The notes below the pieces were generated by a model. It saw only the letters and a program-made list of their open reading frames with translations, ran no database searches and was not told where the DNA came from. The translations under genes were made by a program, and so were the position numbers. This document shows, piece after piece, positions 2,018 to 21,416 of a DNA stretch of 21,416 bases (position 1 is its first letter; each line of letters opens with the position of its first letter). This DNA comes from a virus: the UHGV virus genome UHGV-1738141. One strand, given 5' to 3'.

Positions 2018-2020
2018 TTT

Positions 2021-3158: not shown

Positions 3159-3170
3159 ATTGTCATTACA

Positions 3171-3196: not shown

Positions 3197-3324
3197 GATA
3201 ATGGTTTATACCCTACACGGGATAACTTAACTGATATCCCTTTTAACGGATAAACGGAGCCAACAATGGCAGAGAATGTCGGCATTATGGCAGTTAAATT
3301 TGGATAAATCGGAGATTAGTACAT

Positions 3325-3675
3325 ATGCCGCCACGAATCCCGAAAGCCTGCCGTGCTCGAGGTTGCCGTAATACCACCACTGACCCGTCAGGCTATTGCG
3401 AAAGCCACAAAAGCGAAGGCTGGAAGCAATACAAACCTGGACAATCCCGTCATCAGCGCGGCTACGGTTCGAAGTGGGACAGTATCCGCGCGCGTGTCCT
3501 GAAGCGTGACAAAGGCCTGTGTCAGTTATGTCTGCGTTCTGGTGTGGTGCGTGAGGCGAAAACTGTTGACCACATCATCCCTAAAGCGCATGGCGGCACT
3601 GATGCTGACAGTAATCTGCAGAGTCTGTGCTGGCCGTGTCATAAGGCGAAGACGGCCCGTGAACGGTTAAAGTGA
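3325..3675 (+). CDS. HNH endonuclease (terminase-associated type)
   Basis: N-terminal Cys cluster (C..C...C), HNH-type motif DHIIPKAHGG...N, C-terminal CWPCH zinc ligands. Located immediately upstream of the small terminase gene as in HK97-like cos phages. Confidence 0.85.
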   Translation: MPPRIPKACRARGCRNTTTDPSGYCESHKSEGWKQYKPGQSRHQRGYGSKWDSIRARVLKRDKGLCQLCLRSGVVREAKTVDHIIPKAHGGTDADSNLQSLCWPCHKAKTARERLK

Positions 3676-3701
3676 TAATAATTCTCAACTGTCTGAGGGG
3701 A

Positions 3702-3760
3702 GGGGCGGGTCAAATCCCTGTGACCTGACGTCTTCCGGACTGCCCGCCCCATCGTTTTTT
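3702..3760. promoter_or_regulatory. GC-rich inverted repeat plus T-run between HNH and small terminase; candidate cos/terminase recognition region or terminator
   Basis: ggggcggg (3702-3709) and cccgcccc (3743-3750) are exact reverse complements separated by 33 nt, followed by ttttttt (3754-3760) and preceded by gggg/agggg runs. Confidence 0.3.
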
Positions 3761-3800
3761 TATACCCGCGAAAAATGAAATTTAACCAGGAGTGCCGCAT

Positions 3801-4286
3801 ATGGCTGGAACGGCGGGGCGTTCCGGGCGTCGCCCCAAGCCAACGGCGCGCAAGGCGCTGGCCGGAAACCCCGGCAAGCGAGCCCTGAATAAAGATGAAC
3901 CTGTTTTTACGCCCATCAAAGGTGTTGAGCCACCGGAGTGGTTCGCTGAAGAAGATCTCCCTCTCGCCACGATCATGTGGCAACTGACAACCAAAGAACT
4001 CTGCGGTCAGGGCCTGCTGTGCGTGACTGACCTGGCGGTACTTGAGCGGTGGTGTGTGGCCTATGAATTCTGGCGACGTGCCGTGAAAAATATTGCCAGA
4101 CAGGGCAACACCATCACCGGTGCAATGGGCGGCATGGTCAAAAATCCGGAGCTGACCGCCAAAAAAGAACAGGAGTCCGAGATGAGCAGCACGGGGGCAA
4201 TGCTCGGACTCGACCCCAGCAGCCGCCAGCGTCTGATTGGCCTGGCGGGGAAGAAGAAAGCCACTAACCCGTTTCTGACAATCTGA
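3801..4286 (+). CDS. Terminase small subunit (P27-family-like)
   Basis: Start at ATG 3801 with aggag RBS at 3788-3792; track ORF begins at GTG 3792. Basic N-terminus [13 protein letters not shown] and position immediately upstream of the large terminase. Confidence 0.75.
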
Positions 4287-4299
4287 AAATCATCGAATC

Positions 4300-6033
4300 A
4301 TGAGCCGGAAATCTTACCCCAACGTAAATGCAGCCAATCAGTATGCCCGTGATGTCGTGCGCGGAAAGATTGTGGCCTGCCAGTTTGTGATTCAGGCCTG
4401 CCAGCGCCATCTTGATGACCTGATGGCGGAAAAAAGTAAGTCGTTTCGTTACCGCTTCGACAAGGACCTGGCTGAACGGGCCGCCAAATTTATTCAGCTG
4501 TTGCCGCATACCAAGGGTGAGTGGGCATTCAAACGGATGCCCATCACGCTGGAGCCGTGGCAGCTCTTTGTGATCTGCTGTGCGTTTGGCTGGGTCAATA
4601 AAGGTACCCGGCTGCGCCGCTTCCGGGAGGTGTATACCGAAATCCCCCGTAAGAACGGCAAATCGGCAATCTCTGCCGGTGTCGCCCTGTATTGTTTTGC
4701 CTGTGATAACGAGTTTGGCGCGGAAGTGTATTCCGGTGCCACGACAGAGAAACAGGCGTGGGAAGTCTTTCGCCCGGCGCGACTGATGTGTAAACGCACA
4801 CCCATGCTGACGGAAGCGTTCGGGATTGAGGTTAACGCCTCAAACATGAACCGTCCGGAGGATGGCGCGCGGTTTGAACCGCTGATCGGTAACCCCGGTG
4901 ATGGTTCATCACCCCACTGTGCGGTGGTGGATGAATATCACGAGCACGCCACCGATGCGCTTTATACCACGATGCTTACCGGGATGGGGGCGCGACGTCA
5001 GCCACTGATGTGGGCCATCACCACCGCCGGGTACAACATTGAGGGGCCGTGCTACGACAAGCGGCGGGAAGTTATCGAGATGCTCAACGGTTCGGTACCC
5101 AACGATGAACTGTTCGGGATCATCTATACCGTTGACGAAGGCGATGACTGGACCGACCCGCAGGTGCTGGAAAAAGCCAACCCGAATATTGGCGTGTCGG
5201 TTTATCGCGAATTTTTGTTAAGTCAGCAGCAGCGTGCGAAAAATAACGCCCGTCTGGCAAACGTCTTTAAAACAAAACACCTCAATATCTGGGTGTCGGC
5301 GCGTTCGGCGTATTTCAACCTGGTGAGCTGGCAGAGCTGCGAGGATAAATCACTGACCCTTGAGCAGTTCGAGGGGCAGCCGTGCATTCTGGCCTTTGAC
5401 CTGGCGCGTAAGCTGGATATGAACAGCATGGCGCGACTTTATACCCGCGAGATTGACGGTAAAACGCATTACTACAGTGTGGCCCCGCGTTTCTGGGTAC
5501 CGTATGACACGGTGTACAGCGTCGAGAAAAATGAAGATCGCCGGACAGCCGAACGCTTTCAGAAATGGGTGGAAATGGGCGTTCTGACTGTTACCGCTGG
5601 TGCGGAGGTGGATTATCGCTACATCCTCGAGGAGGCCAAAGCGGCGAACAAAATCAGCCCGGTCAGTGAGTCACCCATCGACCCCTTCGGGGCGACCGGG
5701 CTGTCGCATGACCTTGCTGATGAAGACCTGAACCCCATCACCATCATTCAGAACTACACCAACATGTCCGATCCGATGAAAGAGCTGGAAGCGGCGATTG
5801 AATCGGGGCGCTTTCATCATGACGGCAATCCCATCATGACCTGGTGTATCGGCAACGTGGTCGGCAAAACCATTCCGGGTAACGATGATGTGGTGAAGCC
5901 TGTCAAGGAGCAGGCGGAAAACAAAATCGATGGTGCGGTTGCACTGATTATGGCGATCGGTCGGGCAATGCTCAAAGAACCCGACGATTTCCTCTCATCT
6001 CTTGATCCGGACGATGTTCTCTTAATTCTATGA
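4300..6033 (+). CDS. Terminase large subunit (ATPase + nuclease)
   Basis: 577 aa with deviant Walker A-like [10 protein letters not shown], acidic motifs (VVDEYHE) and a C-terminal nuclease-like region; canonical position between small terminase and portal. Confidence 0.9.
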
Positions 6034-6191
6034 AATCACTAATTGCTGATGTTATCGGGTTGGCTGGTTTTGGCCTGCTTACGTGCGGGTTTTACCTGCA
6101 GTTTGGTATGGCTCCGGCTCTGATGCTGTCCGGCGGTTTACTGCTGGTGGGCGCACTGGCTATGGCCAGAAGGGGGACGCGTGCTGCTTGA
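6030..6191 (+). CDS. Small (53 aa) hydrophobic ORF, putative two-TM membrane protein, absent from the ORF track
   Basis: My translation: [56 protein letters not shown] overlaps the terminase stop (ATGA) and the 3' end overlaps the portal start. Coding status unproven. Confidence 0.35.
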
Positions 6192-7407
6192 TGCTCTGTT
6201 CAGAAGTAAATCACTGGAGAATCCTTCCACCCCGATAACCGGGGATGCCGTTGATACTGATGGGCTGTTCCGGGCAGACGTTTATGTCAGTCCTGAAACT
6301 GCGATGAAACTGGCTGCGGTGTATTCCTGTATCTATGTCCTGTCTTCCAGCCTTGCCCAGATGCCGTTGCATGTTATGCGCAGGCACAATGGGAAGGTTG
6401 AGCCCGCACGCGATCATCCGGCGTTTTATCTGGTTCATGATGAGCCCAATACCTGGCAAACCAGTTACAAATGGCGCGAACTGAAGCAACGTCACATCCT
6501 TGGCTGGGGGAATGGGTATACCTGGGTGAAACGTAATCGTCGCGGTGAAGTCATATCCCTGGATTGCTGTATGCCGTGGGAAACGACGCTGATGAATACT
6601 GGTGGCCGATACACCTACGGTTTGTACAACGAATATGGGGCGTTTGCGATCAGCCTCGACGATATGATCCACATCCGTGCGCTGGGTAATAATCAGAAGA
6701 TGGGGCTGAGTCCGATTATGCAACATGCCGAAACAATAGGCATGGGGATGAGCGGTCAGAAATACACAGAAAGCTTCTTCAGCGGTAATGCCCGTCCGGC
6801 GGGGATAGTATCCGTTAAAAGCGGACTCAATAAGGACAGCTGGGGCTGGCTTAAAGATCAGTGGCAGAAGGCATCGCAGGCGTTACGCAGCCAGGAAAAC
6901 AAAACCATGCTGCTGCCAGCCGATCTGGATTACAAGGCACTGACTGTGTCGCCAGTTGACGCTCAGATCATTGACATGATGAAACTGAACCGTTCAATGA
7001 TTGCCGGTATTTTCAATATTCCTGCGCACATGATTAATGACCTCGAAAAAGCCACCTTCTCCAATATTTCTGCGCAGGCGATTCAGTTTGTCCGCTACAC
7101 GATGATGCCGTGGGTGACGAACTGGGAGCAGGAGCTTAACCGTCGCTTGTTTACCCGCGCTGAGTTAGCCGCCGGGTATTACGTCAGGTTCAATCTGACG
7201 GGGCTTTTACGCGGAACTCCGCAGGAGCGCGCGCAATTCTATCACTTCGCTATTACCGATGGATGGATGAGCCGTAATGAGGCCCGCGCATTCGAGGATA
7301 TGAATCCGGTTGAAGGGCTGGATGAGATGCTGGTAAGCGTGAATGCTGCTAACCCGGCAGGAGATTTTAAGCCCCCAAAAAAAGATGAGGGAAAAACCAA
7401 TGAATGA
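6181..7407 (+). CDS. Portal protein, HK97 family
   Basis: 408 aa; N-terminal region with AVYSCIYVLSSSLAQMPLHV resembles the conserved HK97-type portal N-terminus. Probable GTG start with agaaggggga RBS; lies between terminase and prohead protease. Confidence 0.85.
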   Translation: MLLDALFRSKSLENPSTPITGDAVDTDGLFRADVYVSPETAMKLAAVYSCIYVLSSSLAQMPLHVMRRHNGKVEPARDHPAFYLVHDEPNTWQTSYKWRELKQRHILGWGNGYTWVKRNRRGEVISLDCCMPWETTLMNTGGRYTYGLYNEYGAFAISLDDMIHIRALGNNQKMGLSPIMQHAETIGMGMSGQKYTESFFSGNARPAGIVSVKSGLNKDSWGWLKDQWQKASQALRSQENKTMLLPADLDYKALTVSPVDAQIIDMMKLNRSMIAGIFNIPAHMINDLEKATFSNISAQAIQFVRYTMMPWVTNWEQELNRRLFTRAELAAGYYVRFNLTGLLRGTPQERAQFYHFAITDGWMSRNEARAFEDMNPVEGLDEMLVSVNAANPAGDFKPPKKDEGKTNE

Positions 7408-8002
7408 CCGTGAAATCCGTTGTTACAGCGGTGAGGTGCGTGCTGAGCGGCATGACGATAACCCTGCGCACATTATCGGTTATGGATCGGTGTTTGACTG
7501 TCGTTCTGAGCTGATATTTGGTTCATTCCGCGAAATCATCCGGCCCGGCGCTTTTGACGATGTGCTTGGTGATGATGTACGCGCACTGTTTAACCACGAT
7601 CCTAATTTTATTCTTGGGCGTAGTGCAGCAGGCACGCTGAATCTTTCAGTTGATGAGCGCGGATTGCGCTATGACATCCAGGCTCCGGAGACACAGACCA
7701 TTCGTGATCTGGTGCTGGCCCCGATGCAACGTGGAGATATTAACCAGTCATCTTTTGCTTTCCGTGTCGCCCGTGACGGCGAGGAGTGGTATCAGGATGA
7801 GGACGGGGTTGTTATTCGCGAGATAACCCGCTTTTCCCGTCTGCTGGATGTCAGTCCTGTGACATATCCTGCCTATCAGGAGGCTGACTCGGCTGTTCGC
7901 TCCATGAAAGCATGGCAGGAGGCGCGCAACAGCGGCGCGCTACAGAAAGCCATTAATCAACGTATGGCGCGTGAGCGCGTCCTGACCCTTCTTAACGCGT
8001 AA
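7400..8002 (+). CDS. Prohead maturation protease, HK97 family
   Basis: Start set at ATG 7400 (MNDREIRC...) with GAGG RBS at 7387-7390, overlapping the portal stop. Size and position between portal and capsid genes are typical of HK97-family prohead proteases. Confidence 0.8.
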   Translation: MNDREIRCYSGEVRAERHDDNPAHIIGYGSVFDCRSELIFGSFREIIRPGAFDDVLGDDVRALFNHDPNFILGRSAAGTLNLSVDERGLRYDIQAPETQTIRDLVLAPMQRGDINQSSFAFRVARDGEEWYQDEDGVVIREITRFSRLLDVSPVTYPAYQEADSAVRSMKAWQEARNSGALQKAINQRMARERVLTLLNA

Positions 8003-8012
8003 AGGAAACATC

Positions 8013-9242
8013 ATGAAACTGCATGAACTGAAACAGAAACGTAATACTATCGCAACTGACATGCGTGCCCTGAATGAAAAAATTGGTGATAACGCATGGA
8101 CGGAAGAGCAGCGCACTGAGTGGAACAAAGCAAAATCCGAACTGGAAGCGCTTGATGAACGAATTGCACGCGAAGAAGAACTGCGTCGTCAGGATCAGGC
8201 GTACATTGAAAGCAATGAGGAAGAGCAGCGTCAGAATCTTGATCCGGAAAACAATCCGCAACAGGATGAGAAACGAGCTCAGGTTTTTGATAAGTGGATG
8301 CGTCACGGTGCCAGTGAGCTGACATCAGAAGAACGAAAGGCGTTGCGTGAACTTCGTGCCCAGGGCGTAGCTCAGGATGAAAAGGGCGGATATACCGTAC
8401 CAGAAACATTCCTGGCGAAAGTTGTTGAGAAGATGAAGTCCTACGGTGGCATCGCCAGTGTGGCGCAGATTCTTACCACTTCTGACGGTCGCACTATGGA
8501 GTGGGCAACAGCTGATGGTACTTCCGAAGTTGGTGTTCTGCTGGGCGAAAATGAAGAAGCCGGTGAAGAAGACACCGATTTCGGTATGGGAAGTCTTGGG
8601 GCGCTCAAAATGACATCGAAAATCATTCGTGTGTCTAATGAGTTGCTGCAGGACAGCGCGATCGATATGGAAGCTTATCTTGCCCGTCGTATTGCTGAAC
8701 GTATTGGTCGTGGTGAAGCCCGTTATCTGATTCAGGGAACTGGTGCTGGTACGCCTAAACAACCCAAAGGGCTGGTCGCATCTGTGACCGGCACAACACA
8801 GACTGCCGCGGCAAATACGGTGAAGTGGCAGGAAATTCTGGCTCTGAAACACAGCATTGATCCTGCATATCGTCGCGGGCCGAAATTCCGCCTGGCGTTT
8901 AACGATAATACGCTGAAACTGATCAGTGAGATGGAAGACGGTCAGGGACGCCCTTTATGGTTGCCGGATATTGTTGGTGTGGCACCTGCTTCAGTGTTGA
9001 ATGTACCGTATGTCATTGATCAGGAAATTGATGATATCGGGGCGGGTAAAAAATTCATGTTCTGTGGTGACTTTGATCGCTTCATTATCCGTCGTGTGCG
9101 ATACATGATTCTTAAACGTCTGGTTGAGCGTTACGCGGAATATGATCAGACCGGTTTTCTGGCCTTCCATCGTTTTGACTGTATCCTGGAAGACACCTCT
9201 GCCATTAAAGCGCTGGTGGGGAAAGGTAGCGTTGGTGGTTGA
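8013..9242 (+). CDS. Major capsid protein, HK97 fold, with N-terminal coiled-coil delta (scaffolding) domain
   Basis: 409 aa. The first ~100 aa are charged and coiled-coil-like (ELKQKRNTIATDMRALNEKI...EELRRQDQAY), as in HK97 gp5. No separate scaffold gene lies between protease and capsid. Confidence 0.9.
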   Translation: MKLHELKQKRNTIATDMRALNEKIGDNAWTEEQRTEWNKAKSELEALDERIAREEELRRQDQAYIESNEEEQRQNLDPENNPQQDEKRAQVFDKWMRHGASELTSEERKALRELRAQGVAQDEKGGYTVPETFLAKVVEKMKSYGGIASVAQILTTSDGRTMEWATADGTSEVGVLLGENEEAGEEDTDFGMGSLGALKMTSKIIRVSNELLQDSAIDMEAYLARRIAERIGRGEARYLIQGTGAGTPKQPKGLVASVTGTTQTAAANTVKWQEILALKHSIDPAYRRGPKFRLAFNDNTLKLISEMEDGQGRPLWLPDIVGVAPASVLNVPYVIDQEIDDIGAGKKFMFCGDFDRFIIRRVRYMILKRLVERYAEYDQTGFLAFHRFDCILEDTSAIKALVGKGSVGG

Positions 9243-9263
9243 TTAGTCTTTTTACGTAATACA

Positions 9264-9310
9264 GCACGCCGCGTAATGCGGTTTTTTTGTGCCCGCGTTC
9301 TGGCGGGCAC
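9264..9310 (+). terminator. Tandem hairpins after the capsid gene: terminator-like stem with T-run, then a perfect 8-bp stem abutting the next RBS
   Basis: ccgc-gtaat-gcgg followed by ttttttt (9269-9288); then gtgcccgc-gttctg-gcgggcac (9288-9309) ending 2 nt before the aggagg RBS at 9311. Confidence 0.45.
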
Positions 9311-9320
9311 AGGAGGTTTT

Positions 9321-9644
9321 ATGCTGTTAAAAATGGAAGAGATTAAGCTTCAGCTCCGTCTGGATGATGATTTCTCTGATGAAGATGAGTTGCTTGAACT
9401 GCTTGGTAAGGCCGCTCAGAGTCGTACGGAAAACTTCCTTAACCGTAAGTTGTATGCAACCGCAGATGACAGGCCTGCGGATGATCCTGATGGGCTTGTG
9501 ATATCTGATGATGTGAAGCTGGCGCTTCTGCTACTTGTCAGCCATTTCTACGAAAACCGCTCAACGGTTACAGACGTTGAGAAAATGGAGTTGCCAATGA
9601 GTTTTAACTGGTTGGTTGTTCCTTATCGCCTTATACCACTATGA
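9321..9644 (+). CDS. Head-tail connector protein (gp6-like)
   Basis: Start at ATG 9321 after aggagg RBS; track ORF begins at 9276 inside the terminator. Acidic ~107 aa protein with LKLQLRLDDD...DELLELL pattern typical of gp6-like head-tail connector proteins. Confidence 0.65.
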   Translation: MLLKMEEIKLQLRLDDDFSDEDELLELLGKAAQSRTENFLNRKLYATADDRPADDPDGLVISDDVKLALLLLVSHFYENRSTVTDVEKMELPMSFNWLVVPYRLIPL

Positions 9645-10051
9645 AAATTCGTCAGGCGCAGACCAGCGCAACCTACATTCTGCCGGACCCCGGCGAACTG
9701 AATAAACGCGTCCTGATCCGCCAGCGGGTGGATATGCCCGCGGATAACTTTGGCGTGGAGCCTCAATACCCGGTTGCGTTCCGGGCATGGGCGAAGGTTA
9801 TCCAGACCAGTGCCACCACCTGGCAGGAAACCGCGCAGACCGGAGACGCCATCACCCATTACATCACCATTCGTTACCGCCGGGGGATCACCGCTGATTA
9901 TGAGGTGGTCTGCGGTGACAGTGTGTACCGGGTGAAACGTCAGCGCGATCTGAACGGAGCGCGGCGCTTTCTGCTGCTGGAGTGTACGGAGCTGGGCGAA
10001 TGTAGGCAGAGTCACGGAGGCAACAATGACGACTTCCTTTTTGCACGTTGA
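9641..10051 (+). CDS. Head-tail adaptor / head closure protein
   Basis: 136 aa, ATGA overlap with the preceding gene; position and size match head-tail joining proteins of HK97/SPP1-type modules. Confidence 0.55.
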   Translation: MKIRQAQTSATYILPDPGELNKRVLIRQRVDMPADNFGVEPQYPVAFRAWAKVIQTSATTWQETAQTGDAITHYITIRYRRGITADYEVVCGDSVYRVKRQRDLNGARRFLLLECTELGECRQSHGGNNDDFLFAR

Positions 10052-10532
10052 TTTTCAGCAGCCCGCGGAGATGCGCTTTAACCGCGCCCATGTCCGGCGG
10101 GCGTTTGTCACGATTGGTCAGCGTCATATGCGTGATGCCCGTCGGCTGGTGATGCGCCGTGCGCGGTCGGCACCGGGTGAAAACCCCGGTTATCAGACCG
10201 GACGCCTGGCTCGCTCAATTGGTTACATGGTACCCAGAGCCAGTAAACATCGCCCTGGTTTTATGGCACGTATAGCCCCTAACCAGCGTAATGGAGAGGG
10301 AAACCGCCGTATCACCGGTGATTTTTATCCGGCTTTTTTGTTCTATGGCGTGAGGCGAGGGGCAAAGCGTCGTCGCGGCCATCATCGTGGTGCATCCGGT
10401 GGCAGCGGCTGGCGACTGGCTCCACGTAATAACTTCATGGTGGAAACTCTTGAAAAGAACCGCAGCTGGACACGCTATTTTCTGGCGCGGGAATTGCGTA
10501 AATCACTGAAGCCGGAGCGACGACACAGATGA
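10026..10532 (+). CDS. Tail/neck component, Arg-rich (HK97 gp10-like or Mu gp36-like)
   Basis: 168 aa basic protein with ggagg RBS at 10015-10019; position between adaptor and tail terminator-like gene. Family not resolved. Confidence 0.45.
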   Translation: MTTSFLHVDFQQPAEMRFNRAHVRRAFVTIGQRHMRDARRLVMRRARSAPGENPGYQTGRLARSIGYMVPRASKHRPGFMARIAPNQRNGEGNRRITGDFYPAFLFYGVRRGAKRRRGHHRGASGGSGWRLAPRNNFMVETLEKNRSWTRYFLARELRKSLKPERRHR

Positions 10533-11089
10533 AACTGACGCCCGTTATTGCTGCACTGCGTGCCCGCTGTCCGTATTTTGAAAACCGGGTGGCAGGCGCG
10601 GCACAGTTCAAAAATCTGCCGGAGGTCGGAAAGCTGAGACTCCCGGCGGCGTATGTGGTACCGGGTGATGACTCTCCGGGAGAAAACAAAAGCCAGACCG
10701 ACTACTGGCAGGAGCTGAAAGAGGGCTTCTCCGTGGTTGTCATACTGAGTAACGGGCGTGATGAGCGCGGTCAGTTTGCCTCGTATGATGTGGTGGACGA
10801 TGTCCGGCAGATGCTCTTTAAGGCTCTGCTGGGCTGGAACCCGGAAGCGTGTGGTAACCCGATTACCTATGACGGCGGCACGCTGCTGGATCTGAATCGT
10901 CATGAGCTGATTTATCAGTTCGATTTTTCGGTCATCAGCGAGCTGACTGAAGACGATACCCGCCAGCAGGATGATCTGAACAGTCTGGATGAACTGCAAA
11001 CGCTGGCGATTGATGTTGATTATCTCGAGCCCGGTAACGGGCCTGACGGCGATATCGAACATCACACCGAAATAACCCTTCCTTCCTGA
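10529..11089 (+). CDS. Putative tail completion / tail terminator protein (Mu gp37-like)
   Basis: 186 aa, ATGA overlap with the preceding gene; position immediately upstream of the sheath module. Assignment is by synteny. Confidence 0.45.
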   Translation: MKLTPVIAALRARCPYFENRVAGAAQFKNLPEVGKLRLPAAYVVPGDDSPGENKSQTDYWQELKEGFSVVVILSNGRDERGQFASYDVVDDVRQMLFKALLGWNPEACGNPITYDGGTLLDLNRHELIYQFDFSVISELTEDDTRQQDDLNSLDELQTLAIDVDYLEPGNGPDGDIEHHTEITLPS

Positions 11090-11097
11090 GGATCCTC

Positions 11098-11268
11098 ATG
11101 TTTGTCAAACCTGTTAAAGGGCGGTCAGTGCCTGACCCTGCCCGCGGCGACCTTTTGCCCGCCGAAGGGCGAAATGTTGACGAGAACAACTACTGGCTGC
11201 GCCGTGAAGCAGCGGGTGATATCCGGCGCGTGAATAAAAAGGTGAATACCGATGACGATAAGCTTTAA
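11098..11268 (+). CDS. Small conserved protein (56 aa), DUF2635-like, absent from the ORF track
   Basis: My translation: MFVKPVKGRSVPDPARGDLLPAEGRNVDENNYWLRREAAGDIRRVNKKVNTDDDKL. gagga RBS at 11088-11092; overlaps the sheath start. The KP..G..V.DP.....LPAEG....E..YW.RR...GD pattern matches small proteins I recall upstream of Mu-type sheath genes. Confidence 0.45.
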   Translation: MFVKPVKGRSVPDPARGDLLPAEGRNVDENNYWLRREAAGDIRRVNKKVNTDDDKL

Positions 11269-12748
11269 CACCATTCCGTCGAATACGCTGGTTCCGTTGT
11301 TTTATGCGGAAATGGATAACCAGGCGGCGAATACTGCACAGGACAGCGGAGCATCGCTGCTGATTGGTCATGCCAATAACGGTGCAGAGATTGTTGCCAA
11401 CAGTCTGGTACTGATGCCGTCGGCAGACTATGCACGCCAGATTTGTGGTGCGGGAAGTCAGCTGGCGCGTATGGTCGAGGCTTATCGCCAGACCGACCCG
11501 TTTGGCGAGCTGTATGTGATTGCCGTTCCTGAATCCACAGGCGCGGCGGCAACAGTTACGCTGACGGTGACCGGGGCAGCAACCGAAACCGGCACGGTGA
11601 ATGTTTATGTGGGACGTACCCGCGTGCAGGCACCGGTGACCAACGGCGATAACGTCGCGACGATTGCCAGCAGTATCAAAGATGCCATCAATGCCGTTCC
11701 GGCCCTGCCGTTTACGGCCTCATCTTCGGCTGGTGTGGTTACATTGACCGCTCGCCATAAGGGGCTTTGCGGGAATGAAATTCCTGTCAGCCTCAATTAC
11801 TACGGCTTCGGTGGGGGCGAAGTGCTGCCAGCGGGCGTACAGATTGCCGTGGCGACGGGGACCGCCGGAACGGGCGCTCCGGTTCTCACCGGCGCGGTGG
11901 CTGCAATGGCGGATGAGCCGTTTGATTATATCGGTCTGCCGTTCAACGACACGGCCTCTGTTAACACGCTGGTGACCGAGATGAACGATACCAGCGGTCG
12001 CTGGAGCTATGCGCGTCAGCTGTATGGTCATGTGTATACGGCAAAGGCCGGCACACTGTCAGAACTGGTGAACGCAGGTGACCAGTTTAACCAGCAGCAC
12101 ATCACCCTGGCGGGGTACGAAAAAGAGACCCAGACGCCTGCCGACGAGCTGGCAGCCAGCCGTACCGCCCGCGCAGCGGTGTTTATCCGCAACGATCCGG
12201 CACGTCCCACGCAGACCGGTGAGATGGTGGGTATGCTGCCTGCGCCGAAGGGGAAACGGTTCACGATGACCGAACAACAGACCCTGCTGTCTCATGGCGT
12301 GGCAACGGCGTATGTCGAAAGCGGGGTACTGCGCATTCAGCGTGATGTCACCACGTACAGGAAAAACGCTTACGGGGTTGCGGATAACAGCTACCTCGAC
12401 AGTGAGACACTGCATACCAGCGCGTATGTACTGCGCAAACTGAAATCCGTCATTACCAGTAAGTACGGGCGTCACAAGCTTGCCAGTGACGGTACCCGCT
12501 TTGGTCCCGGTCAGGCGATTGTCACCCCGGCGGTGATCAAAGGGGAACTGCTGGCAACCTACCGTCAGCTTGAGCGTGCGGGGATCGTGGAAAACTACGA
12601 ACTGTTTAAGCAGTACCTGGTTGTGGAGCGTGATGCCAGCGATCCGAACCGCCTGAACACGCTGTTCCCGCCTGACTATGTTAACCAGTTGCGTGTCTTT
12701 GCCGTGGTTAACCAGTTCCGTCTTCAGTATTCAGAGGAGTCTGCATAA
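11252..12748 (+). CDS. Contractile tail sheath protein (Mu gpL-like)
   Basis: 498 aa; N-terminus MTISFNTIPSNTLVPLFYAE typical of Mu-type sheath proteins; followed directly by the tube gene. Confidence 0.85.
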   Translation: MTISFNTIPSNTLVPLFYAEMDNQAANTAQDSGASLLIGHANNGAEIVANSLVLMPSADYARQICGAGSQLARMVEAYRQTDPFGELYVIAVPESTGAAATVTLTVTGAATETGTVNVYVGRTRVQAPVTNGDNVATIASSIKDAINAVPALPFTASSSAGVVTLTARHKGLCGNEIPVSLNYYGFGGGEVLPAGVQIAVATGTAGTGAPVLTGAVAAMADEPFDYIGLPFNDTASVNTLVTEMNDTSGRWSYARQLYGHVYTAKAGTLSELVNAGDQFNQQHITLAGYEKETQTPADELAASRTARAAVFIRNDPARPTQTGEMVGMLPAPKGKRFTMTEQQTLLSHGVATAYVESGVLRIQRDVTTYRKNAYGVADNSYLDSETLHTSAYVLRKLKSVITSKYGRHKLASDGTRFGPGQAIVTPAVIKGELLATYRQLERAGIVENYELFKQYLVVERDASDPNRLNTLFPPDYVNQLRVFAVVNQFRLQYSEESA

Positions 12749-13104
12749 TGGCCCGTATCGGGGGAACCTGTTATTTCAAAATTGACGGTCAGCAGCTATC
12801 GCTGACCGGCGGCATTGAGGTGCCCATGAACAGGACGGTCAATGATGACATCATCGGCCTGGACGGTTCAGTGGACCGCAAGGAAACTCACCGTGCGCCT
12901 TATGTCAAAGGGACCTTCAAGGTGCCGAAGAATTTTCCGGTGAACAAAATCACCTCGTCTGATGAGATGACAATCACTGCCGAGCTGGCGAACGGTCAGG
13001 TCTATGTACTGTCGTCTGCCTGGCTGCACGGCGAAGCGAACCATAATGCCGAAGAAGGCACGGTTGATCTTGAGTTCCACGGTGAAGAAGGGGATTACCA
13101 GTAA
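12748..13104 (+). CDS. Tail tube protein (Mu gpM-like)
   Basis: 118 aa; ATGA-type overlap with the sheath stop; sheath-tube gene order. Confidence 0.75.
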   Translation: MARIGGTCYFKIDGQQLSLTGGIEVPMNRTVNDDIIGLDGSVDRKETHRAPYVKGTFKVPKNFPVNKITSSDEMTITAELANGQVYVLSSAWLHGEANHNAEEGTVDLEFHGEEGDYQ

Positions 13105-13373
13105 TGAAAGAGCTTGAGTTAAAGAAACCGATTACCGCTCATGGCGAGACACTCTCCGTACTGGAGTTTGATGAGCCCACCGGGAAAGATGTCCGCGAGC
13201 TGGGATATCCCTACCAGATGAATCAGGATGAGTCCGTCAGACTTCTGGCGCATGTGGTATCGAAATACATCGTGCGGCTGGCGAAAGTGCCGCAAAGCTC
13301 TGTCGACCAGATGTCTCCGGCAGACCTGAATGCAGCGGCGTGGCTTGTGGCCGGTTTTTTCCTCCAGGCCTGA
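13104..13373 (+). CDS. Tail assembly chaperone (G-like, short form)
   Basis: 89 aa acidic protein between the tube and tape-measure genes; ends just after a slippery heptamer. Confidence 0.7.
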   Translation: MKELELKKPITAHGETLSVLEFDEPTGKDVRELGYPYQMNQDESVRLLAHVVSKYIVRLAKVPQSSVDQMSPADLNAAAWLVAGFFLQA

Positions 13374-13522
13374 CGGCTGAATACCTCACTGATCGCTTCT
13401 TTGACTGCGCCAGTTACTGGCGCATTAATCCTTTCGAATTGCTGAATATGCCGATCAGTGAAATTCCCTTACTGGTCAGTCAGGCAAACAGGATAGAGCA
13501 GGAGAAACGCACACATGGCTGA
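13104..13522 (+). CDS. Tail assembly chaperone frameshift fusion (GT-like, long form)
   Basis: Joining the 13104 ORF to the overlapping -1 frame ORF (track 13340-13522) at the slippery site gives a ~139 aa product ending 8 nt into the tape-measure gene, the conserved arrangement upstream of tape-measure genes. Confidence 0.5.
13355..13361 (+). other. Candidate -1 programmed ribosomal frameshift slippery heptamer T_TTT_TTC
   Basis: Seen in sequence: ggttttttcc, in-frame codons GGT TTT TTC, fitting X_XXY_YYZ. The -1 frame is open from here to 13522. Confidence 0.55.
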
Positions 13523-15350
13523 ATTTGAGCTTAAGGCGTTGATCACCGGTGTCGACAGGCTTTCTCCGGCGCTGTCGAAAATGCAAAAGAAAATCCGGGG
13601 ATTTAAACGCCAGGCGGAAGAAGCGTCACAGGGTGGGCTGGCGCTTGGTGGCGGACTGGCAGCGGGTCTGACGCTTTCCCTGAAATCTTATGCCGATCAG
13701 GAAAACGCCGCCACCGGGCTGAAAGTCGCCATGATGGATGCGAACGGCGAGGTTGGAAAAAGCTTTCAGGACATCAATAAATTGGCTATTGGCCTGGGTA
13801 ACCAGCTACCCGGTACAACGGCTGATTTCCAGAACATGATGCAGATGCTGGTGCGTCAGGGGATCCCAGCAGAAAACATTCTGGGTGGTGTGGGTAAAGC
13901 GACAGCTTATCTTGCGGTACAACTGAAAAAAACACCGGAATCGGCAGCCGAGTTTGCTGCAAAGATGCAGGATGCTACCGGAACGGCGTCAGAAGACATG
14001 ATGGGGCTGTTCGACACTATCCAGAAAGCGTTTTATCTGGGCGTTGACGATACCAACATGTTGTCCTTCTTCACTAAAACCAGTTCTGTTCTGAAGATGG
14101 TGAATAAGGACGGTCTTCAGGCTGCACAGAGCCTTGCCCCTATCAGCGTCATGATGGATCAGATGGGGATGAACGGGGAGTCGGCAGGTAATGCCCTGCG
14201 AAAAGTTATTCAGTCCGGATTAAGCGTTAAGAAAATCAGGGACGTCAATAAAGTCATGGCCCGCCAGAAACTCGGAGTGCAGCTCGATTTTACTGACGGC
14301 AAAGGGAGTTTTGGCGGTCTTGATAACATGTTCAGGCAACTGGCAAAGCTGCGAAAACTGACCGACGTTAAGCGAACAGGTGTACTTAAGGCAATATTTG
14401 GTGATGATGCCGAAACCCTTCAGGTGGTCAATGCACTAATCGATAAAGGAAAGGATGGCTACGATCAGATCCAGCAGAAGATGAATAAACAGGCCAGCCT
14501 GAATAAACGTGTTCAGGCCCAGCTTGGTACGCTGTCCAACCTGTGGGAGGCAATGACGGGGACCGCAACTAACGGCCTTGCGGCTATTGGCGGCGCATTT
14601 TCTGGTGACGCCAAAAATATCACGCAATGGCTGGGGGAGTTGGGGGAGAAATTCACGAAGTTTGCGGATGAAAATCCCCGGGTTATTCGCGGCGTCGTCG
14701 GGCTTGCTGCCGGTCTTGCGATTCTGAAACTGGGATTGATGGGCGTTGGCGGTGCCATCAGTATTGTCAGCAGGATCATGTCGATGACGCCGATTGGCAT
14801 GATTGCGACGGCGATAGCCCTGGCTGCGGGATTAATTATCACTAACTGGGATGTTGTCGGACCTTATTTTAAGAAACTCTGGGAAACCATTAGTCCTTAT
14901 TTTGAGGCTGGCTGGGAACTTCTGAAGAAGGTTTTTGCCTGGTCGCCGCTGGGGATGGTGATCAATAACTGGGGACCGGTTGTTAAGTGGTTTCAGGATA
15001 TGTGGGATAAGCTGAAGCCGATTATTGAATGGTTTACCGACAGTTCCGGTGACACGGTCGATGCCATTAACTCTGCGCAGTGGGGCGCGGGTGCTTATGA
15101 TGCTTATGGGACGGGAATACCGGCGCGGGGATACAAACCTTATCCGGCGGTAGATCTGGCTCAGTCAAACAACGCCTCCGGTGCCACAGGCCCAAATCCC
15201 TTCATGATTAACAAAGCTTCTGCGCCAAAAGTTGATGGTGAGATCAAGGTCTCTTTTGTGAATTCGCCTCCGGGTATGCGGGTTATGGAAACGCGATCCA
15301 GCGGTTTTGATGTCAGCCATGATGTTGGCTATACGCGCTTTGGCAGGTAA
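13515..15350 (+). CDS. Tail tape measure protein
   Basis: 611 aa, Ala/Gly/Leu-rich with hydrophobic central segments (GLAAGLAILKLGLMGVGGAISIV); position after the chaperone pair. Confidence 0.85.
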   Translation: MAEFELKALITGVDRLSPALSKMQKKIRGFKRQAEEASQGGLALGGGLAAGLTLSLKSYADQENAATGLKVAMMDANGEVGKSFQDINKLAIGLGNQLPGTTADFQNMMQMLVRQGIPAENILGGVGKATAYLAVQLKKTPESAAEFAAKMQDATGTASEDMMGLFDTIQKAFYLGVDDTNMLSFFTKTSSVLKMVNKDGLQAAQSLAPISVMMDQMGMNGESAGNALRKVIQSGLSVKKIRDVNKVMARQKLGVQLDFTDGKGSFGGLDNMFRQLAKLRKLTDVKRTGVLKAIFGDDAETLQVVNALIDKGKDGYDQIQQKMNKQASLNKRVQAQLGTLSNLWEAMTGTATNGLAAIGGAFSGDAKNITQWLGELGEKFTKFADENPRVIRGVVGLAAGLAILKLGLMGVGGAISIVSRIMSMTPIGMIATAIALAAGLIITNWDVVGPYFKKLWETISPYFEAGWELLKKVFAWSPLGMVINNWGPVVKWFQDMWDKLKPIIEWFTDSSGDTVDAINSAQWGAGAYDAYGTGIPARGYKPYPAVDLAQSNNASGATGPNPFMINKASAPKVDGEIKVSFVNSPPGMRVMETRSSGFDVSHDVGYTRFGR

Positions 15351-15373
15351 TGAAAAATTAATCTGTTAATGAG

Positions 15374-15395
15374 TCCCACTCCGGTGGGATTTTTT
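15374..15395 (+). terminator. Rho-independent terminator-like hairpin downstream of the tape-measure gene
   Basis: tcccac-tccg-gtggga perfect 6-bp stem followed by tttttt (15390-15395); 24 nt after the tape-measure stop. Confidence 0.45.
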
Positions 15396-15410
15396 ATGTA
15401 CGGAGTTTAT

Positions 15411-16739
15411 ATGACGTGGAAAGACAGACTTCAGGACGCGTCATTTCGAGGTGTGCCGTTTAAGGTTGAAGAAGAAAGTGCGGGAACCGGCCGTCGTGTG
15501 GAAACACACGAATATCCGAACCGCGACAAACCCTATACCGAAGATCTGGGAAAAGTCACTTTCCGCCCGTCCATCACAGCTTATGTGGTGGGAGATGACT
15601 GCTTTGACCAGCGCGATCGCCTGATTGAAGCGCTGAATAAACCCGGTCCCGGCACGCTTGTCCATCCGACTTACGGTGAGCTGAAAGTCTGTGTTGACGG
15701 GGAAGTTCGGGTCAGCACATCGAAAAGTGAAGGACGTATTGTCCGCTTTGACCTGAAGTTTGTCGAAGCGGGAGAACTCTCTTACCCCACATCAGGTGCG
15801 GCGACGGCGCAGACGCTGATGTCATCCTGTTCTGCACTGGATGACTGCATCAGTGACAGTTTCAGTGGTTTCAGTATCGATGGCGTGGCAGATTTTGTGC
15901 AGAACGACGTCGTCGGTAATGCCGGCACAATGCTTGGGTATATTTCTGATGCGATGAAAGTGGTGGATTCTGCCGTATCGGATGCCGCCAGGCTGTTGCA
16001 GGGGGATATCTCGGTACTTCTGCCGCCGCCATCGTCAGGCAAAAATTTCGTTGAGCTGGTGCAGAAAATGTGGCGTACCGGGAAACGCCTTTATGGTAAC
16101 GCCAGCGACCTGGTCACCATGATCAAAACGCTTTCCGGTGTCAGCCTCGGCAGCGATCTGCAACCGCGCGGCGTCTGGAAAACGGACAGTAAAACCACCG
16201 CCACGGCGACGCAGCAGCGTAACGTGGTTGCCAGCACCCTTCGTACGACCGCAATCAGCGAAGCGGCGTATGCCGTCACCCGATTGCCTGCGCCAACAAC
16301 TTCCGCGGTGATGCAGAATGCCGCAGTGGGGCAGGCAACAACACCCGCGCAGAGCACTGGCTGGCCTTCCGTCACGCATCCGGCACTGAACAATGCACCG
16401 GCGGTGAAAAACACGGTTGACCTGCCGACGTGGGAAGAACTGACTGACATTCGCGACACACTGAATACGGCAATTGATAAGGAGTTGTCCCGTACAACCA
16501 GCGATGCGCTGTTTCTGGCGCTGCGCCGGGTGAAAGCAGATCTGAATGCGGATATCAACACGCGCCTTGAACAGTCTGCACGGATCATTCAGCGCACACC
16601 GGATGAAGTTTTACCCGCGCTGGTGCTGGCGGCGACCTGGTTTGATAACGCGGCGCGTGACGCGGACATTATCCGGCGTAATGCCATTACGCATCCCGGC
16701 TTTGTGCCGGTGATCCCTCTGAAGGTGCCAGTGCAATGA
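15411..16739 (+). CDS. DNA circulation protein (Mu gpN-like)
   Basis: Start set at ATG 15411 (MTWKDRLQDASFRGVPF...) with ggag RBS at 15402-15405; track ORF begins at 15369. N-terminus resembles Mu N-family proteins; position after tape measure. Confidence 0.7.
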   Translation: MTWKDRLQDASFRGVPFKVEEESAGTGRRVETHEYPNRDKPYTEDLGKVTFRPSITAYVVGDDCFDQRDRLIEALNKPGPGTLVHPTYGELKVCVDGEVRVSTSKSEGRIVRFDLKFVEAGELSYPTSGAATAQTLMSSCSALDDCISDSFSGFSIDGVADFVQNDVVGNAGTMLGYISDAMKVVDSAVSDAARLLQGDISVLLPPPSSGKNFVELVQKMWRTGKRLYGNASDLVTMIKTLSGVSLGSDLQPRGVWKTDSKTTATATQQRNVVASTLRTTAISEAAYAVTRLPAPTTSAVMQNAAVGQATTPAQSTGWPSVTHPALNNAPAVKNTVDLPTWEELTDIRDTLNTAIDKELSRTTSDALFLALRRVKADLNADINTRLEQSARIIQRTPDEVLPALVLAATWFDNAARDADIIRRNAITHPGFVPVIPLKVPVQ

Positions 16740-17815
16740 ACGACAATGTCACGCTACGGGTAAATGGCCGGGAGTGGAATGGCTGGACATCGGTGCGCAT
16801 CGGTGCCGGTATTGAACGGCTGGCGCGGGATTTCAGTGTGGAGATCACCCGCCAGTGGCCGGGAGATGAGGGTATCACCACGCTTCAGCCGCGCATTAAA
16901 AACGGTTCAAAAGTGGAAGTGCTGATTGGTGATGAGCTGGTGATCACCGGCTGGGTGGAGGCGACGCCCGTTCGTTACGATTCCCGTTCGGTCAGCACCG
17001 GTATTGCCGGACGTAGTCTGACGGCTGACCTGATTGACTGTGCAGCCGAACCGACACAGTTTAACGGACGCTCGCTGGTGCAGATTGCGCAGGCGCTTGC
17101 TGCGCCTTTCGGCATTGAGGTGGTGAACAGCGGTGCGCCGTCGGGTGTTATTCCTGATGTTCAGCCTGATCACGGTGAAACGGTGATTGAGGTAATCAAC
17201 AAAATACTCGGTCAGCAGCAGGCACTGGCTTACGACGACCCGCACGGCAGGCTGGTGATTGGCGGTATTGGCTCAACGCGGGCACATACTGCGCTGGTAC
17301 TCGGGGAAAACATCCTTTCCTGCGATACGGAGAAGAGTATCCGGGAGCGGTTTTCTGTTTACCAGGTGGCGGGGCAGCGTGCCGGAAACGACGATGATTT
17401 CGGTGAGGCCACCACCACCGCGCTGCGGGCCCGCACAGAGGACGCATTTATTGCCCGTTACCGTCCGATGTATATCAGGCAGACAGGGCAGGCTACGGGG
17501 GCAGGCTGTATTGCGCGTGCTGACTTTGAAGCCCGGCAACGGGCGGCGCGGACGGATGAAACCACCTATGTGGTGCAGGGCTGGCGACAGGGTAACGGTA
17601 CGCTGTGGCAGCCCAACCAGCGGGTGATTGTCTTTGATCCGGTCTGTGGTTTCGACAATACCGAACTGCTTGTTTCGGAAGTCACGTTTACTCAGGACCA
17701 GAACGGCACCCTGACGGAAATCCGTGTCGGCCCACCTGATGCTTATCTGCCTGAACCCGAAGCCCCCGGCGCGCGGAAAAAGAAAAAAGCCAGAGTACAG
17801 GAGGACCCGTTCTGA
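16736..17815 (+). CDS. Baseplate hub / tail protein (Mu gpP-like, P2 gpD-like)
   Basis: 359 aa; ATGA overlap with the preceding gene; synteny with the Mu N-P-45-46-47-48 order. Confidence 0.7.
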   Translation: MNDNVTLRVNGREWNGWTSVRIGAGIERLARDFSVEITRQWPGDEGITTLQPRIKNGSKVEVLIGDELVITGWVEATPVRYDSRSVSTGIAGRSLTADLIDCAAEPTQFNGRSLVQIAQALAAPFGIEVVNSGAPSGVIPDVQPDHGETVIEVINKILGQQQALAYDDPHGRLVIGGIGSTRAHTALVLGENILSCDTEKSIRERFSVYQVAGQRAGNDDDFGEATTTALRARTEDAFIARYRPMYIRQTGQATGAGCIARADFEARQRAARTDETTYVVQGWRQGNGTLWQPNQRVIVFDPVCGFDNTELLVSEVTFTQDQNGTLTEIRVGPPDAYLPEPEAPGARKKKKARVQEDPF

Positions 17816-18363
17816 TGAGGACGATTGAAGCCATGCAGCGACAACTCCTCGGCCTGATTGGGCGGGCAGTGGTGAAAAGCATCAGTGCCGCCACGAAATG
17901 TCAGACCGTGGATGTGTCCCTGATTGCCGGTGAACCCAAAGCCGGGGTTGAACATCTTGAACCCTACGGTTTTACCGCAAGGGCAAACAGCGGTGCGGAA
18001 GCGGTGGTGTTGTTTCCGGATGGCGACCGTTCTCATGCGGTGGTTGTTACGGTGTCGGACCGGCGCTACCGCCTGAAAGGGCTGCAGACGGGTGAGGTGG
18101 CTGTCTATGACGATCAGGGGCAGTCTGTGACGCTGACCCGGGAGGGGATCGTGGTGGACGGTGCAGGTAAAACGATCACGTTTCGCAATGCGCCCAGAGC
18201 ACGTTTTGAAATGGACCTGGAAGTGACCGGACAGGTGAAAGACCTGTGCGACTCCGGCGGTACCACCATGTCAGCGATGCGGCTTGCCTATAACGGGCAT
18301 CGTCACAGAGAGAACGGTCAGGGCAGTAACACCGACAAACCTGATAAAGCGATGGAGGCATGA
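17815..18363 (+). CDS. Baseplate assembly protein V / spike (Mu gp45-like)
   Basis: 182 aa; N-terminal MRTIEAMQRQLLGLIGRAVV and OB-fold-like body typical of gpV/gp45 proteins; caggagga RBS upstream. Confidence 0.75.
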   Translation: MRTIEAMQRQLLGLIGRAVVKSISAATKCQTVDVSLIAGEPKAGVEHLEPYGFTARANSGAEAVVLFPDGDRSHAVVVTVSDRRYRLKGLQTGEVAVYDDQGQSVTLTREGIVVDGAGKTITFRNAPRARFEMDLEVTGQVKDLCDSGGTTMSAMRLAYNGHRHRENGQGSNTDKPDKAMEA

Positions 18364-18788
18364 TGGAACTGTGGCTGACGGTGAACGGTAAACGCACCTG
18401 CGCCAGCGCACAGCTGGATCCGCTGACCCGCGCCGTGGTGATTTCCCTGTTTACCTGGCGGCGGGCGGAGCCTGATGACAACGCCGATGTCCCGATGGGA
18501 TGGTGGGGGGATACCTGGCCTGCGGTACAGAATGACCGTTACGGCTCCCGACTGTGGCTGCTTCAGCGCAGCAAACTGACCAATCAGCTGGTGCAGACGG
18601 TAAGGGGGTATATCCGCGAATGCCTGCAATGGATGATTGATGACGGCGTGGTGTCCCGTATTGATCTGGATATCCGCCGCACCGGGATTAATGAACTGGG
18701 TAACAGTATCACTCTCTGGCGTCGTGACGGACCGGTAATGATTTCTTTTGATGATCTGTGGAGTGCGATAACGCATGGCGGACAGTGA
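18360..18788 (+). CDS. Baseplate wedge protein (Mu gp46-like, gpW/gp25-like)
   Basis: 142 aa; overlaps neighbours on both sides; follows the gpV-like gene. Confidence 0.65.
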   Translation: MMELWLTVNGKRTCASAQLDPLTRAVVISLFTWRRAEPDDNADVPMGWWGDTWPAVQNDRYGSRLWLLQRSKLTNQLVQTVRGYIRECLQWMIDDGVVSRIDLDIRRTGINELGNSITLWRRDGPVMISFDDLWSAITHGGQ

Positions 18789-19833
18789 ATTTCAGCGCCC
18801 GACGCTGGCAGAAAATATCAGTATGCTCCGTAACGATTTATTCGCCAGGCTGGACGTCAGCGACACGCTCCGGCGCATGGATGAAGACGTGCGGGCAAAG
18901 GTGTATGCGGCGGCGCTGCATACGGTTTACGGTTACATCGATTATCTGGCAATGAACATGCTGCCTGACCTGTGCGATGAGTCCTGGCTGGCGCGACATG
19001 CTGCGATGAAACGGTGTCCGCGCAAGGGGGCCACGGCTGCCAGCGGGTATATGCGCTGGGAAGGTGTCAGCGATGGCCTGAAGGTGACCGCCGGGAGTGT
19101 TATTCAGCGCGATGACCTGGTGCAGTACACGACAACTGACGATGCAACCAGCTCCGGTGGTGTCCTGCGCGTGCCGATCACTTGCTCAACTACAGGCGCG
19201 GTCGGTAACGCTGACGACGGTACGGCATTAATCCTGGTCACGCCGGTGAATGGTCTGCCGTCTTCCGGTGTTGCAGATACCCTGACTGGCGGATTTGATA
19301 CTGAAGAGCTGGAAACGTGGCGCGCCCGCGTCATTGAGCGGTATTACTGGACGCCTCAGGGCGGGGCTGACGGGGACTATGTCGTCTGGGCTAAAGAAGT
19401 GTCAGGCATTACCCGTGCATGGACATACCGCCACTGGATGGGAACGGGGACTGTCGGTGTGATGATTGCCAGCAGTGACCTGATTAATCCCATTCCGGAA
19501 GAATCAACGGAAACGGCGGCAAGACAACACATTGAGCCACTGGCCCCGGTGGCAGGCTCTGATTTGTATGTATTCAGGCCGGTGGCGCATAAAGTGGATT
19601 TTCATATCCGCGTGACGCCGGACACACCGGAAATACGGGCTGCCATCACCGCGGAGTTGCGTTCGTTCCTGCTGCGTGATGGTTATCCGCAGGGAGAACT
19701 GAAGGTATCGCGTATCAGTGAGGCGATTTCCGGTGCGAACGGGGAATACAGCCATCAGTTGCTTGCACCGGCAGACAATATCTCCATTGCAAAAAATGAA
19801 CTGGCGGTTCTGGGGACGATTTCATGGACGTGA
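18775..19833 (+). CDS. Baseplate J-like protein (Mu gp47-like)
   Basis: 352 aa; synteny between the gp46-like and gp48-like genes. Confidence 0.75.
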
Positions 19834-20408
19834 CAAACGATGATTACATCCGCCTGTTATCGGCACTGTTGCCGCCCGGTCCTGCATGGTCAGCCAGCGA
19901 TCCGGCGATTGCCGGTGCGGCACCTTCATTAACCCGCGTTCATCAGCGTGCGGATGCCCTGATGCGGGAGCTGGATCCGCGCACCACCACTGAACTGATA
20001 AACCGCTGGGAGCGTCTGTGCGGTCTGCCGGATGAATGTATTCCCGCAGGGACACAGACCCTTCGCCAGCGTCAGCAACGGCTGGATGCGAAGGTTAATC
20101 TGGCGGGCGGCATCAATGAGGATTTTTACCTTGCACAGCTTGCTGCCCTGGGCAGACCAGACGCCACTATCACGCGATACGATAAAAGCACGTTCACCTG
20201 CTCATCGGCCTGTACTGACGCAGTGAATGCGCCGGAATGGCGGTATTACTGGCAGGTCAACATGCCAGCCGCCACCAACACCACCTGGATGACATGTGGC
20301 GATCCCTGTGATTCCGCACTGCGTATCTGGGGCGACACCGTTGTCGAGTGCGTGCTTAACAAACTCTGCCCTTCGCATACCTACGTAATTTTTAAATATC
20401 CGGAGTAA
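19824..20408 (+). CDS. Tail protein, DUF2313 (Mu gp48-like, YmfQ-like)
   Basis: 194 aa; N-terminus [22 protein letters not shown] and position between baseplate J and the tail fibre, as for ymfQ in e14-type prophages. Confidence 0.65.
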
Positions 20409-20411
20409 TCC

Positions 20412-21116
20412 ATGCATCGTATAGACACGAAAACCGCGCAGAAGGATAAGTTCGGCGCGGGTAAGAACGGTTTTACCCGTGGTAACCCCCAGACCGGCAC
20501 ACCTGCCACCGATCTGGATGATGACTACTTTGACATGTTGCAGGAAGAACTTTGTAGCGTGGTGGAGGCCTCCGGTGCCAGCCTGGAGAAAGGGCGGCAT
20601 GACCAGATGCTTACCGCACTTCGTGCGCTGCTGTTAAGCCGCAAGAATCCGTTTGGCGATATCAAATCGGATGGCACTGTGCAAACGGCTCTCGAAAACC
20701 TTAGTTTAGGAGAAGGCTCAGCATTGCCTGTTGGCGTACCTGTTCCGTGGCCTTCAGTCACACCGCCAACAGGCTGGCTGAAATGCAACGGTGCAGCTTT
20801 TTCTGCCGAAGAGTATCCGGAACTGGCAAAAGTTTATCCGACAAATAAATTGCCAGATTTACGCGGCGAATTCATTCGTGGGTGGGATGATGGAAGAGGA
20901 ATTGATTCAGGACGGACTCTCCTGTCTGCTCAGGACGGGAGCATTGAGGCACACGGCCATGATTACAATGGGGCCATCTATACTTCTAGCGGTCCTTCCT
21001 GGGCTAATACGACGGATGCGGGACACCGGGCATATTCGGGATTTACATCATCATATGGCGGGAGCGAAACCCGTCCACGAAATATTGCATTTAACTATAT
21101 CGTGAGGGCTGCATAA
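20412..21116 (+). CDS. Tail fibre protein with C-terminal phage tail-collar domain
   Basis: 234 aa; ggag RBS at 20402-20405. C-terminal collar-like pattern [37 protein letters not shown]...[17 protein letters not shown]; followed by a tfa-like gene. Confidence 0.75.
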
Positions 21117-21361
21117 TGGATAACGCCGTATTAAATAGCGAGCTTATTGCCACGAAGGCGGGGAATATTACTGTTTATAACTATGATGGTGAGACGCGGG
21201 AATATATTTCTGCATCAACTGAATATCTTGCAGTGGGTGTCGGTATTCCAGCATATTCCTGTTTAGACGCTCCTGGTACATCTAAGGCTGGTTATACAAT
21301 TTGCCGTTCTGTGGATTTAAAATCATGGGAATATGTGTCAGACCATCAAGCGTTTCGATGA
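21116..21361 (+). CDS. Tail fibre assembly protein, N-terminal domain only (81 aa; possibly truncated or frameshifted)
   Basis: VYNYDGETREYIS...GIPAYS...SWEYVSDH matches the conserved N-terminal pattern of Tfa proteins. The ORF stops right after DH, where full-length Tfa proteins continue. Confidence 0.6.
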   Translation: MDNAVLNSELIATKAGNITVYNYDGETREYISASTEYLAVGVGIPAYSCLDAPGTSKAGYTICRSVDLKSWEYVSDHQAFR

Positions 21362-21416
21362 GAAGAATGGTGCAAAACAGGAATTGTTGCCGGAATTTAA
21401 AGATGAGGAGGATCAA
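21333..21416 (+). CDS. 5' end of an ORF running off the window (MCQTIKRFDEKNGAKQELLPEFKDEEDQ...); possibly the frameshifted continuation of tfa or a separate downstream gene
   Basis: Open in the +1 frame relative to tfa from 21321 to the window edge, with ATG at 21333. Hydrophilic, coding-like composition. Confidence 0.3.
   Translation, partial: MCQTIKRFDEKNGAKQELLPEFKDEEDQ

Follow-up and report, generated by a model that had tools for sequence, protein, structure and literature searches.

Tail-fibre assembly (Tfa) proteins, a family that includes TfaE and the lambda-Tfa-like chaperones, are encoded immediately after a tail-fibre gene. In the E. coli genome NZ_AP022098, an intact Tfa (WP_069904755.1) has 199 amino acids, and its Caudo_TAP domain (PF02413) occupies residues 78-197. 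Host-range cassettes, such as Mu G/Gin, P1 C/Cin and e14 P/Pin, provide a further point of comparison. In E. coli STEC799 (NZ_CP173115), a 97% relative of the prophage described here, the fibre end (compared-locus positions 24824-27627) contains a gene for a 256-aa fibre, tfaE, an inverted second tfa, a gp53-like tip, and pinE; this arrangement looks like an invertible host-range cassette. Since the fibre end of STEC799 differs in this way, the module that follows the baseplate genes is exchangeable within this phage group. Abrupt joins between unrelated sequences are also known from short-read metagenomes, and shared stretches of 8 nt are typical of chimeras that form by template switching or annealing.

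The window considered here, the whole stretch of 21,416 nt, is an entire contig. An exact look-up of the 81-aa product discussed below identified it as ENA ERZ507888 NODE_687_length_21416_cov_5.248512, which comes from a SPAdes-style gut metagenome assembly and has a coverage of 5.25x. Thus, the edge of the window is a true contig end rather than an arbitrary cut, and for this reason the window cannot simply be extended. Most of the contig, 21.3 kb, is an ordinary E. coli prophage, and Bacteroidales pieces flank it at both ends, 53 nt on the left and 69 nt on the right. Along its length the GC content moves from 0.39 to 0.537 in the E. coli body and then to 0.41 in the right tip. The authentic prophage segment (54-21339, + strand) is SfV-like with Mu-type tail genes. 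It is recognized by its gene content (a lysis module, terminase, head, sheath, tube, baseplate, and the 234-aa tail fibre) and by a whole-window search, in which bases 1701-21347 match NZ_AP022098 and its relatives in one piece at 99.9% identity. To the left of 1701, these closest relatives (99.9%) diverge, in a region of the window (52-1700) that holds a small ORF, a DNA methyltransferase gene, and the start of the holin gene. A third chimeric join, at 1700/1701, was considered and ruled out, since other E. coli genomes align colinearly with bases 52-2600 (98.6% identity) and so span this boundary, which represents ordinary phage mosaicism or module exchange.

At the right end of the prophage segment, the tfa ORF (21116-21361, + strand) starts with an ATG at 21116 that overlaps the stop codon of the 234-aa tail-fibre gene (ATAATG; …GCATAATGG…). 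The product has 81 aa and ends in ...SWEYVSDHQAFR*. Of the 78 residues aligned with the intact 199-aa Tfa, 77 are identical: the match covers residues 1-77, and divergence sets in at residue 78. Thus, the first-pass annotation was correct both in recognizing a convincing Tfa N-terminus, which matches WP_069904755.1 and lies directly 3' of the tail-fibre gene, and in describing the gene as cut short, since tfa is intact at 199 aa in E. coli genomes that are identical to the window up to 21347. The genuine part of tfa, which belongs to the E. coli prophage, comprises codons 1-77 plus one base (21116-21347, + strand; 100% identity to six E. coli chromosomes) and precedes the region that encodes Caudo_TAP. 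This C-terminal domain (PF02413, about 130 residues) is absent from the 81-aa ORF, which gives no Pfam match at all with the local Pfam copy; the whole domain (residues 78-197) is lost because the contig passes into foreign DNA. The remaining part of the ORF (21348-21361, + strand; …Q A F R stop) is an artefactual tail that results from translating nusB DNA in the frame of tfa. In a precomputed annotation, the 81-aa product is placed in PF28596 (Caudo_TAP_N), an assignment for which the local Pfam copy gives no match. The artefactual 81-aa "Tfa" is already present in a public protein collection, where it is a member of a Tfa cluster.

The position at which E. coli identity stops is exact. A megablast search of 20412-21416 against 5,426 complete E. 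coli genomes gave matches in 2,462 records, and among the matches listed, all those that extend into tfa break off at query base 936, equivalent to window position 21347. Six complete E. coli genomes are 100% identical up to this base and have an intact tfa there, and the whole-window search likewise places the end of E. coli identity at 21347. Beyond this point, the normal E. coli continuation of tfa is …GACCATCGCGGTGAAATCG…. An earlier proposal that a breakpoint lies near 21347, and that the end of the ORF marks a junction rather than a natural stop, is thus borne out to the base. The tail-fibre/tfa region itself (window 20412-21347) is mosaic at the DNA level: within this interval, the fibre gene matches the "short tail fiber" of SfV, SfII, and SfI over bases 1-304 (94-98%) and the stf genes of HK97 and HK106 over bases 280-523 (84-88%), and bases 645-936, which comprise the C-terminus of the fibre and the N-terminus of Tfa, match a P2-like phage (89%).

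The DNA that follows 21347 belongs to another phylum. This foreign tip (21348-21416, + strand; 69 nt) stems from the interior of a NusB-family gene of Bacteroidales and has exact matches in Bacteroidales contigs. A 44-mer from the last 77 nt of the window is found exactly in three of these, namely contigs of Phocaeicola vulgatus, of a Bacteroides stercoris MAG, and of a Bacteroides sp. MAG. When compared base by base, window positions 21340-21416 (77 nt) are 100% identical to Bacteroides/Phocaeicola nusB. This stretch matches a 308-aa ORF that carries a NusB domain (PF01029, E = 1.9e-24), whose codons for residues 185-209 occupy 21343-21416 (+ strand), with the bases shared with tfa included. 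In sensitive blastn searches, the last 77 nt gave no significant match among the 5,426 E. coli genomes, and none among 50,697 phage records. Among plasmids, blastn returned chance matches with one exception, a Phocaeicola massiliensis plasmid record (82.7%), which was the earliest pointer to Bacteroidales.

This origin accounts for both of the ORFs seen at the contig end. The tfa frame enters the nusB DNA out of frame, resulting in a stop after four extra codons. The overlapping frame (frame B), which had been reported as open from 21321 to the edge and is indeed open from there to the last base, 21416, is the native nusB frame, and it therefore appears as an "overlapping ORF" that runs off the contig. 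It reads ...TIKRFDEKNGAKQELLPEFKDEEDQ, and the gene caller applied to the source contig predicted from it a 28-aa partial product starting at an ATG at 21333 (21333-21416). The frame-B peptide is NusB residues 185-209 and thus belongs to the NusB family as a fragment only. Frame B is not a gene of this phage or of its host. Consequently, the suggestion of a separate downstream gene holds in so far as frame B comes from a gene unrelated to tfa, but that gene is foreign to both phage and host. The agreement of the 81-aa product with the intact Tfa is far beyond chance, and the 69 nt match a Bacteroidales gene at 100%.

The opposite end of the contig carries a second foreign tip (1-53, + strand). 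Its 53 bases show 100% identity to the interior of a Bacteroidales gene for a 529-aa SusD/RagB lipoprotein (PF07980 and PF14322) and begin at residue 177 of that protein. The first 44 nt are present exactly in 92 metagenome contigs, nearly all of them from human gut where labelled, and in 91 of the 92 the identity ends at window base 53. Identity to E. coli begins at base 52, so the two overlap by 2 nt (52-53). The SusD and nusB flanks were not found together in one locus when 6-14 kb per locus was compared, and thus the contig probably does not represent a simple insertion of E. coli DNA into one Bacteroidales site.

At the right join, 21347/21348, E. coli tfa and Bacteroidales nusB have in common an 8-nt microhomology, AGACCATC (21340-21347, unstranded), as seen in a three-way alignment. 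In 2 million random pairings, the probability that a random join of the two loci shares a stretch of at least 8 nt was 1.8e-5. Upstream of this stretch, window 21305-21347 and nusB locus 2367-2409 show patchy similarity (AAATC-TGG … TGTGT … AGACCATC), which may have aided a template switch. The join falls mid-codon in tfa, and no integrase, transposase, repeat, or duplication was seen there. A 38-mer spanning the junction gave 0 matches in a metagenome collection of 241 million records, which includes many ENA human-gut assemblies, and 0 matches in IMG/VR.

The identical junction is present in a second ENA assembly, ERZ28666556, in the 18,702-nt contig YEZI19-1_SAMN06115543_METAG-scaffold_776. 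Bases 1-478 of this scaffold, reversed, equal window 20916-21393, so that the contig ends 46 nt past the join; its far end is equivalent to about window 2692. Since the junction occurs in a second assembly, the join was present in the reads and is not the invention of one assembler. Both assemblies that bear it end 46-69 nt after the join, less than one read length. ERZ507888 and ERZ28666556 likely derive from the same sample, with one a re-assembly of public data; if they came from different samples, the explanation as an artefact would be seriously weakened. Given the label "YEZI19-1" and the proximity of the accessions, SAMN06115543 may belong to PRJNA356225. That project, a gut study of Behcet's disease, used TruSeq v2 libraries sequenced as 2x150 nt on a HiSeq 4000 (PMC6091101). 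If the reads are 2x150, one chimeric read per tip could be enough. The read needed for the right tip contains at least 77 nt of E. coli and 69 nt of foreign DNA, with at most 150 nt in all, and that for the left tip contains 53 nt of foreign DNA and at least 77 nt of E. coli.

Taken together, the truncated tfa and the overlapping ORF are best explained as a library or assembly chimera and not as a biological feature (probability about 0.9). Prophage DNA from a rare E. coli would have become joined to DNA of abundant gut Bacteroidales within one fragment or read. This chimera probably formed by template switching or ligation, either during library preparation or during sequencing, with the right join made inside tfa at 21347/21348 on the 8-nt microhomology. 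It would then have been kept as a contig tip because the E. coli coverage did not suffice for the assembler to discard it. At both contig ends there is a sharp switch between identities of about 100% to unrelated phyla, and the foreign tips (69 nt and 53 nt) lie at the very ends of a contig of 5.25x coverage and are shorter than a read. Counting against an artefact is the finding that both ends of one contig are chimeric, something that a standard PCR library seldom produces. At the right end, exactly 77 nt are identical to Bacteroidales, and 77 is a common SPAdes k, in keeping with a graph junction. This length was not accepted as evidence of a k=77 vertex: the left tip has 53 nt and the corresponding stretch in the second assembly 54 nt, which are incompatible with one k, and a real junction would also yield 77 nt, so the length does not discriminate.

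Other explanations fare considerably worse than a chimera, and none of the three first offered holds in the form given. The first-pass annotation had raised the possibility of a +1 frameshift or indel in tfa, as a pseudogene or a sequencing error, such that the tfa frame (frame A) and frame B together would specify a full Tfa, and frame B does open where frame A closes. Yet BLASTP did not align frame B to the C-terminal region of the intact Tfa, so frame B lacks Tfa similarity, and the DNA past 21347, which is 100% nusB, could not be aligned with tfa and has no homology to it in any frame. A frameshifted pseudogene is thus refuted and retains practically no chance of being correct. Recombination of a host-range cassette, or an invertase-driven rearrangement at a crossover site in tfa that brought in new cargo downstream, had also been envisaged. 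It would suit a phage group whose tail-fibre/tfa loci are mosaic and in which STEC799 has an inverted tfa, a gp53-like fibre tip, and pinE downstream. Nevertheless, the sequence past the junction is a piece of a NusB-family gene from another phylum and contains no phage gene, the join is mid-codon and has no mobile-element features, an invertase is lacking in the genomes identical as far as the junction, and the opposite end of the contig carries the same kind of foreign tip. A cassette swap is therefore unsupported and must be considered extremely improbable. A false join made by the assembler alone, on the basis of a common k-mer and without any chimeric read, would be in keeping with the low coverage and with the coincidence of the 77-nt stretch with a common SPAdes k. 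The 8 nt that are shared, however, are far fewer than any assembly k and thus far too few for a false join in a de Bruijn graph, and the exact junction recurs in a differently named assembly; for these reasons a purely computational origin is very unlikely.

A real junction in the sample, in which prophage and Bacteroidales DNA were joined, within a cell or as extracellular DNA, by microhomology-mediated illegitimate recombination, could take the form of a 21-kb E. coli fragment in a Bacteroidales genome or of Bacteroidales fragments in an E. coli prophage. The 8-nt microhomology fits such a process, the junction is present in two assemblies, and the flanks on both sides are Bacteroidales genes. 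If true, the junctions would provide a direct snapshot of illegitimate recombination between phyla in a gut community. Against this, both joins fall mid-gene, one of them within nusB, a core housekeeping gene, and in none of the Bacteroidales loci compared do the flanks lie next to each other. Furthermore, the E. coli part is 99.9-100% identical to chromosomes, with no trace of residence elsewhere, and the junction is absent from the public collections scanned (the metagenome collection and IMG/VR). Neither assembly goes more than 69 nt past the join, where features of an integrase, transposase, repeat, or duplication are lacking. A real junction thus has only a slight likelihood, and a chimera formed in the library or assembly is strongly preferred.

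If the contig tip is a chimera, the content of the real phage can probably be read from prophages that are identical up to the junction. In the phage itself, tfa is almost certainly intact, encoding 199 aa. In NZ_AP022098 (compared-locus positions 6705-11261), tfa is followed by a gene on the opposite strand for a 389-aa acyltransferase (Acyl_transf_3), a remnant of a capsid gene, a DinI-like gene, and a gene for a tyrosine integrase located by dusA. Judging from such identical prophages, the real phage probably also has the acyltransferase gene, the DinI-like gene, and the integrase gene next to dusA downstream of tfa. The acyltransferase possibly functions in the modification of surface polysaccharides. 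Thus, the idea that this edge conceals unseen cargo has some merit, in that genes for an acyltransferase, a DinI-like protein, and an integrase follow tfa in the identical prophages, but the edge of the window is itself nusB. Neither a serine invertase nor an inverted tfa set is present in the window or in the prophages that are identical to the junction. The suggested search for a pin/gin-type invertase downstream is sensible in this phage group; the identical prophages have none, and a pinE cassette is present solely in the more distant STEC799.

The biological significance of the contig end is small, since it reflects no change in phage host range, no frameshift, and no new cargo. Its relevance is instead to the reading of metagenome contigs. 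The ends of contigs with low coverage can bear foreign tips that are shorter than a read, and these generate false truncated genes and false partial ORFs. Such features at contig ends need to be compared with close reference genomes before they are interpreted.

The locus can thus be set against four known systems. Like members of the Tfa family, TfaE and the lambda-Tfa-like chaperones among them, the ORF follows a fibre gene, and it agrees with an E. coli prophage Tfa at every one of residues 1-77; unlike them, it is without the whole of the Caudo_TAP domain. The right tip is identical to Bacteroidales NusB (PF01029, the long 308-aa form) in residues 185-209 and in 77 nt of DNA, but the window has just an internal piece of 25 residues, without start, stop, or native context. 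With respect to Mu G/Gin, P1 C/Cin, and e14 P/Pin, STEC799 carries a comparable set of genes at the equivalent position, whereas the window is without an invertase or an inverted tfa, and its breakpoint is explained by foreign DNA. Finally, the contig differs from short-read metagenome chimeras in that its junction is common to two assemblies, which locates the join at the level of the reads and does not itself indicate how it formed. It resembles these chimeras in its abrupt switch of identity, its microhomology, its tips of less than a read length, and its low coverage, and also in having abundant Bacteroidales as partners, a stepwise GC profile, and both of its ends affected.
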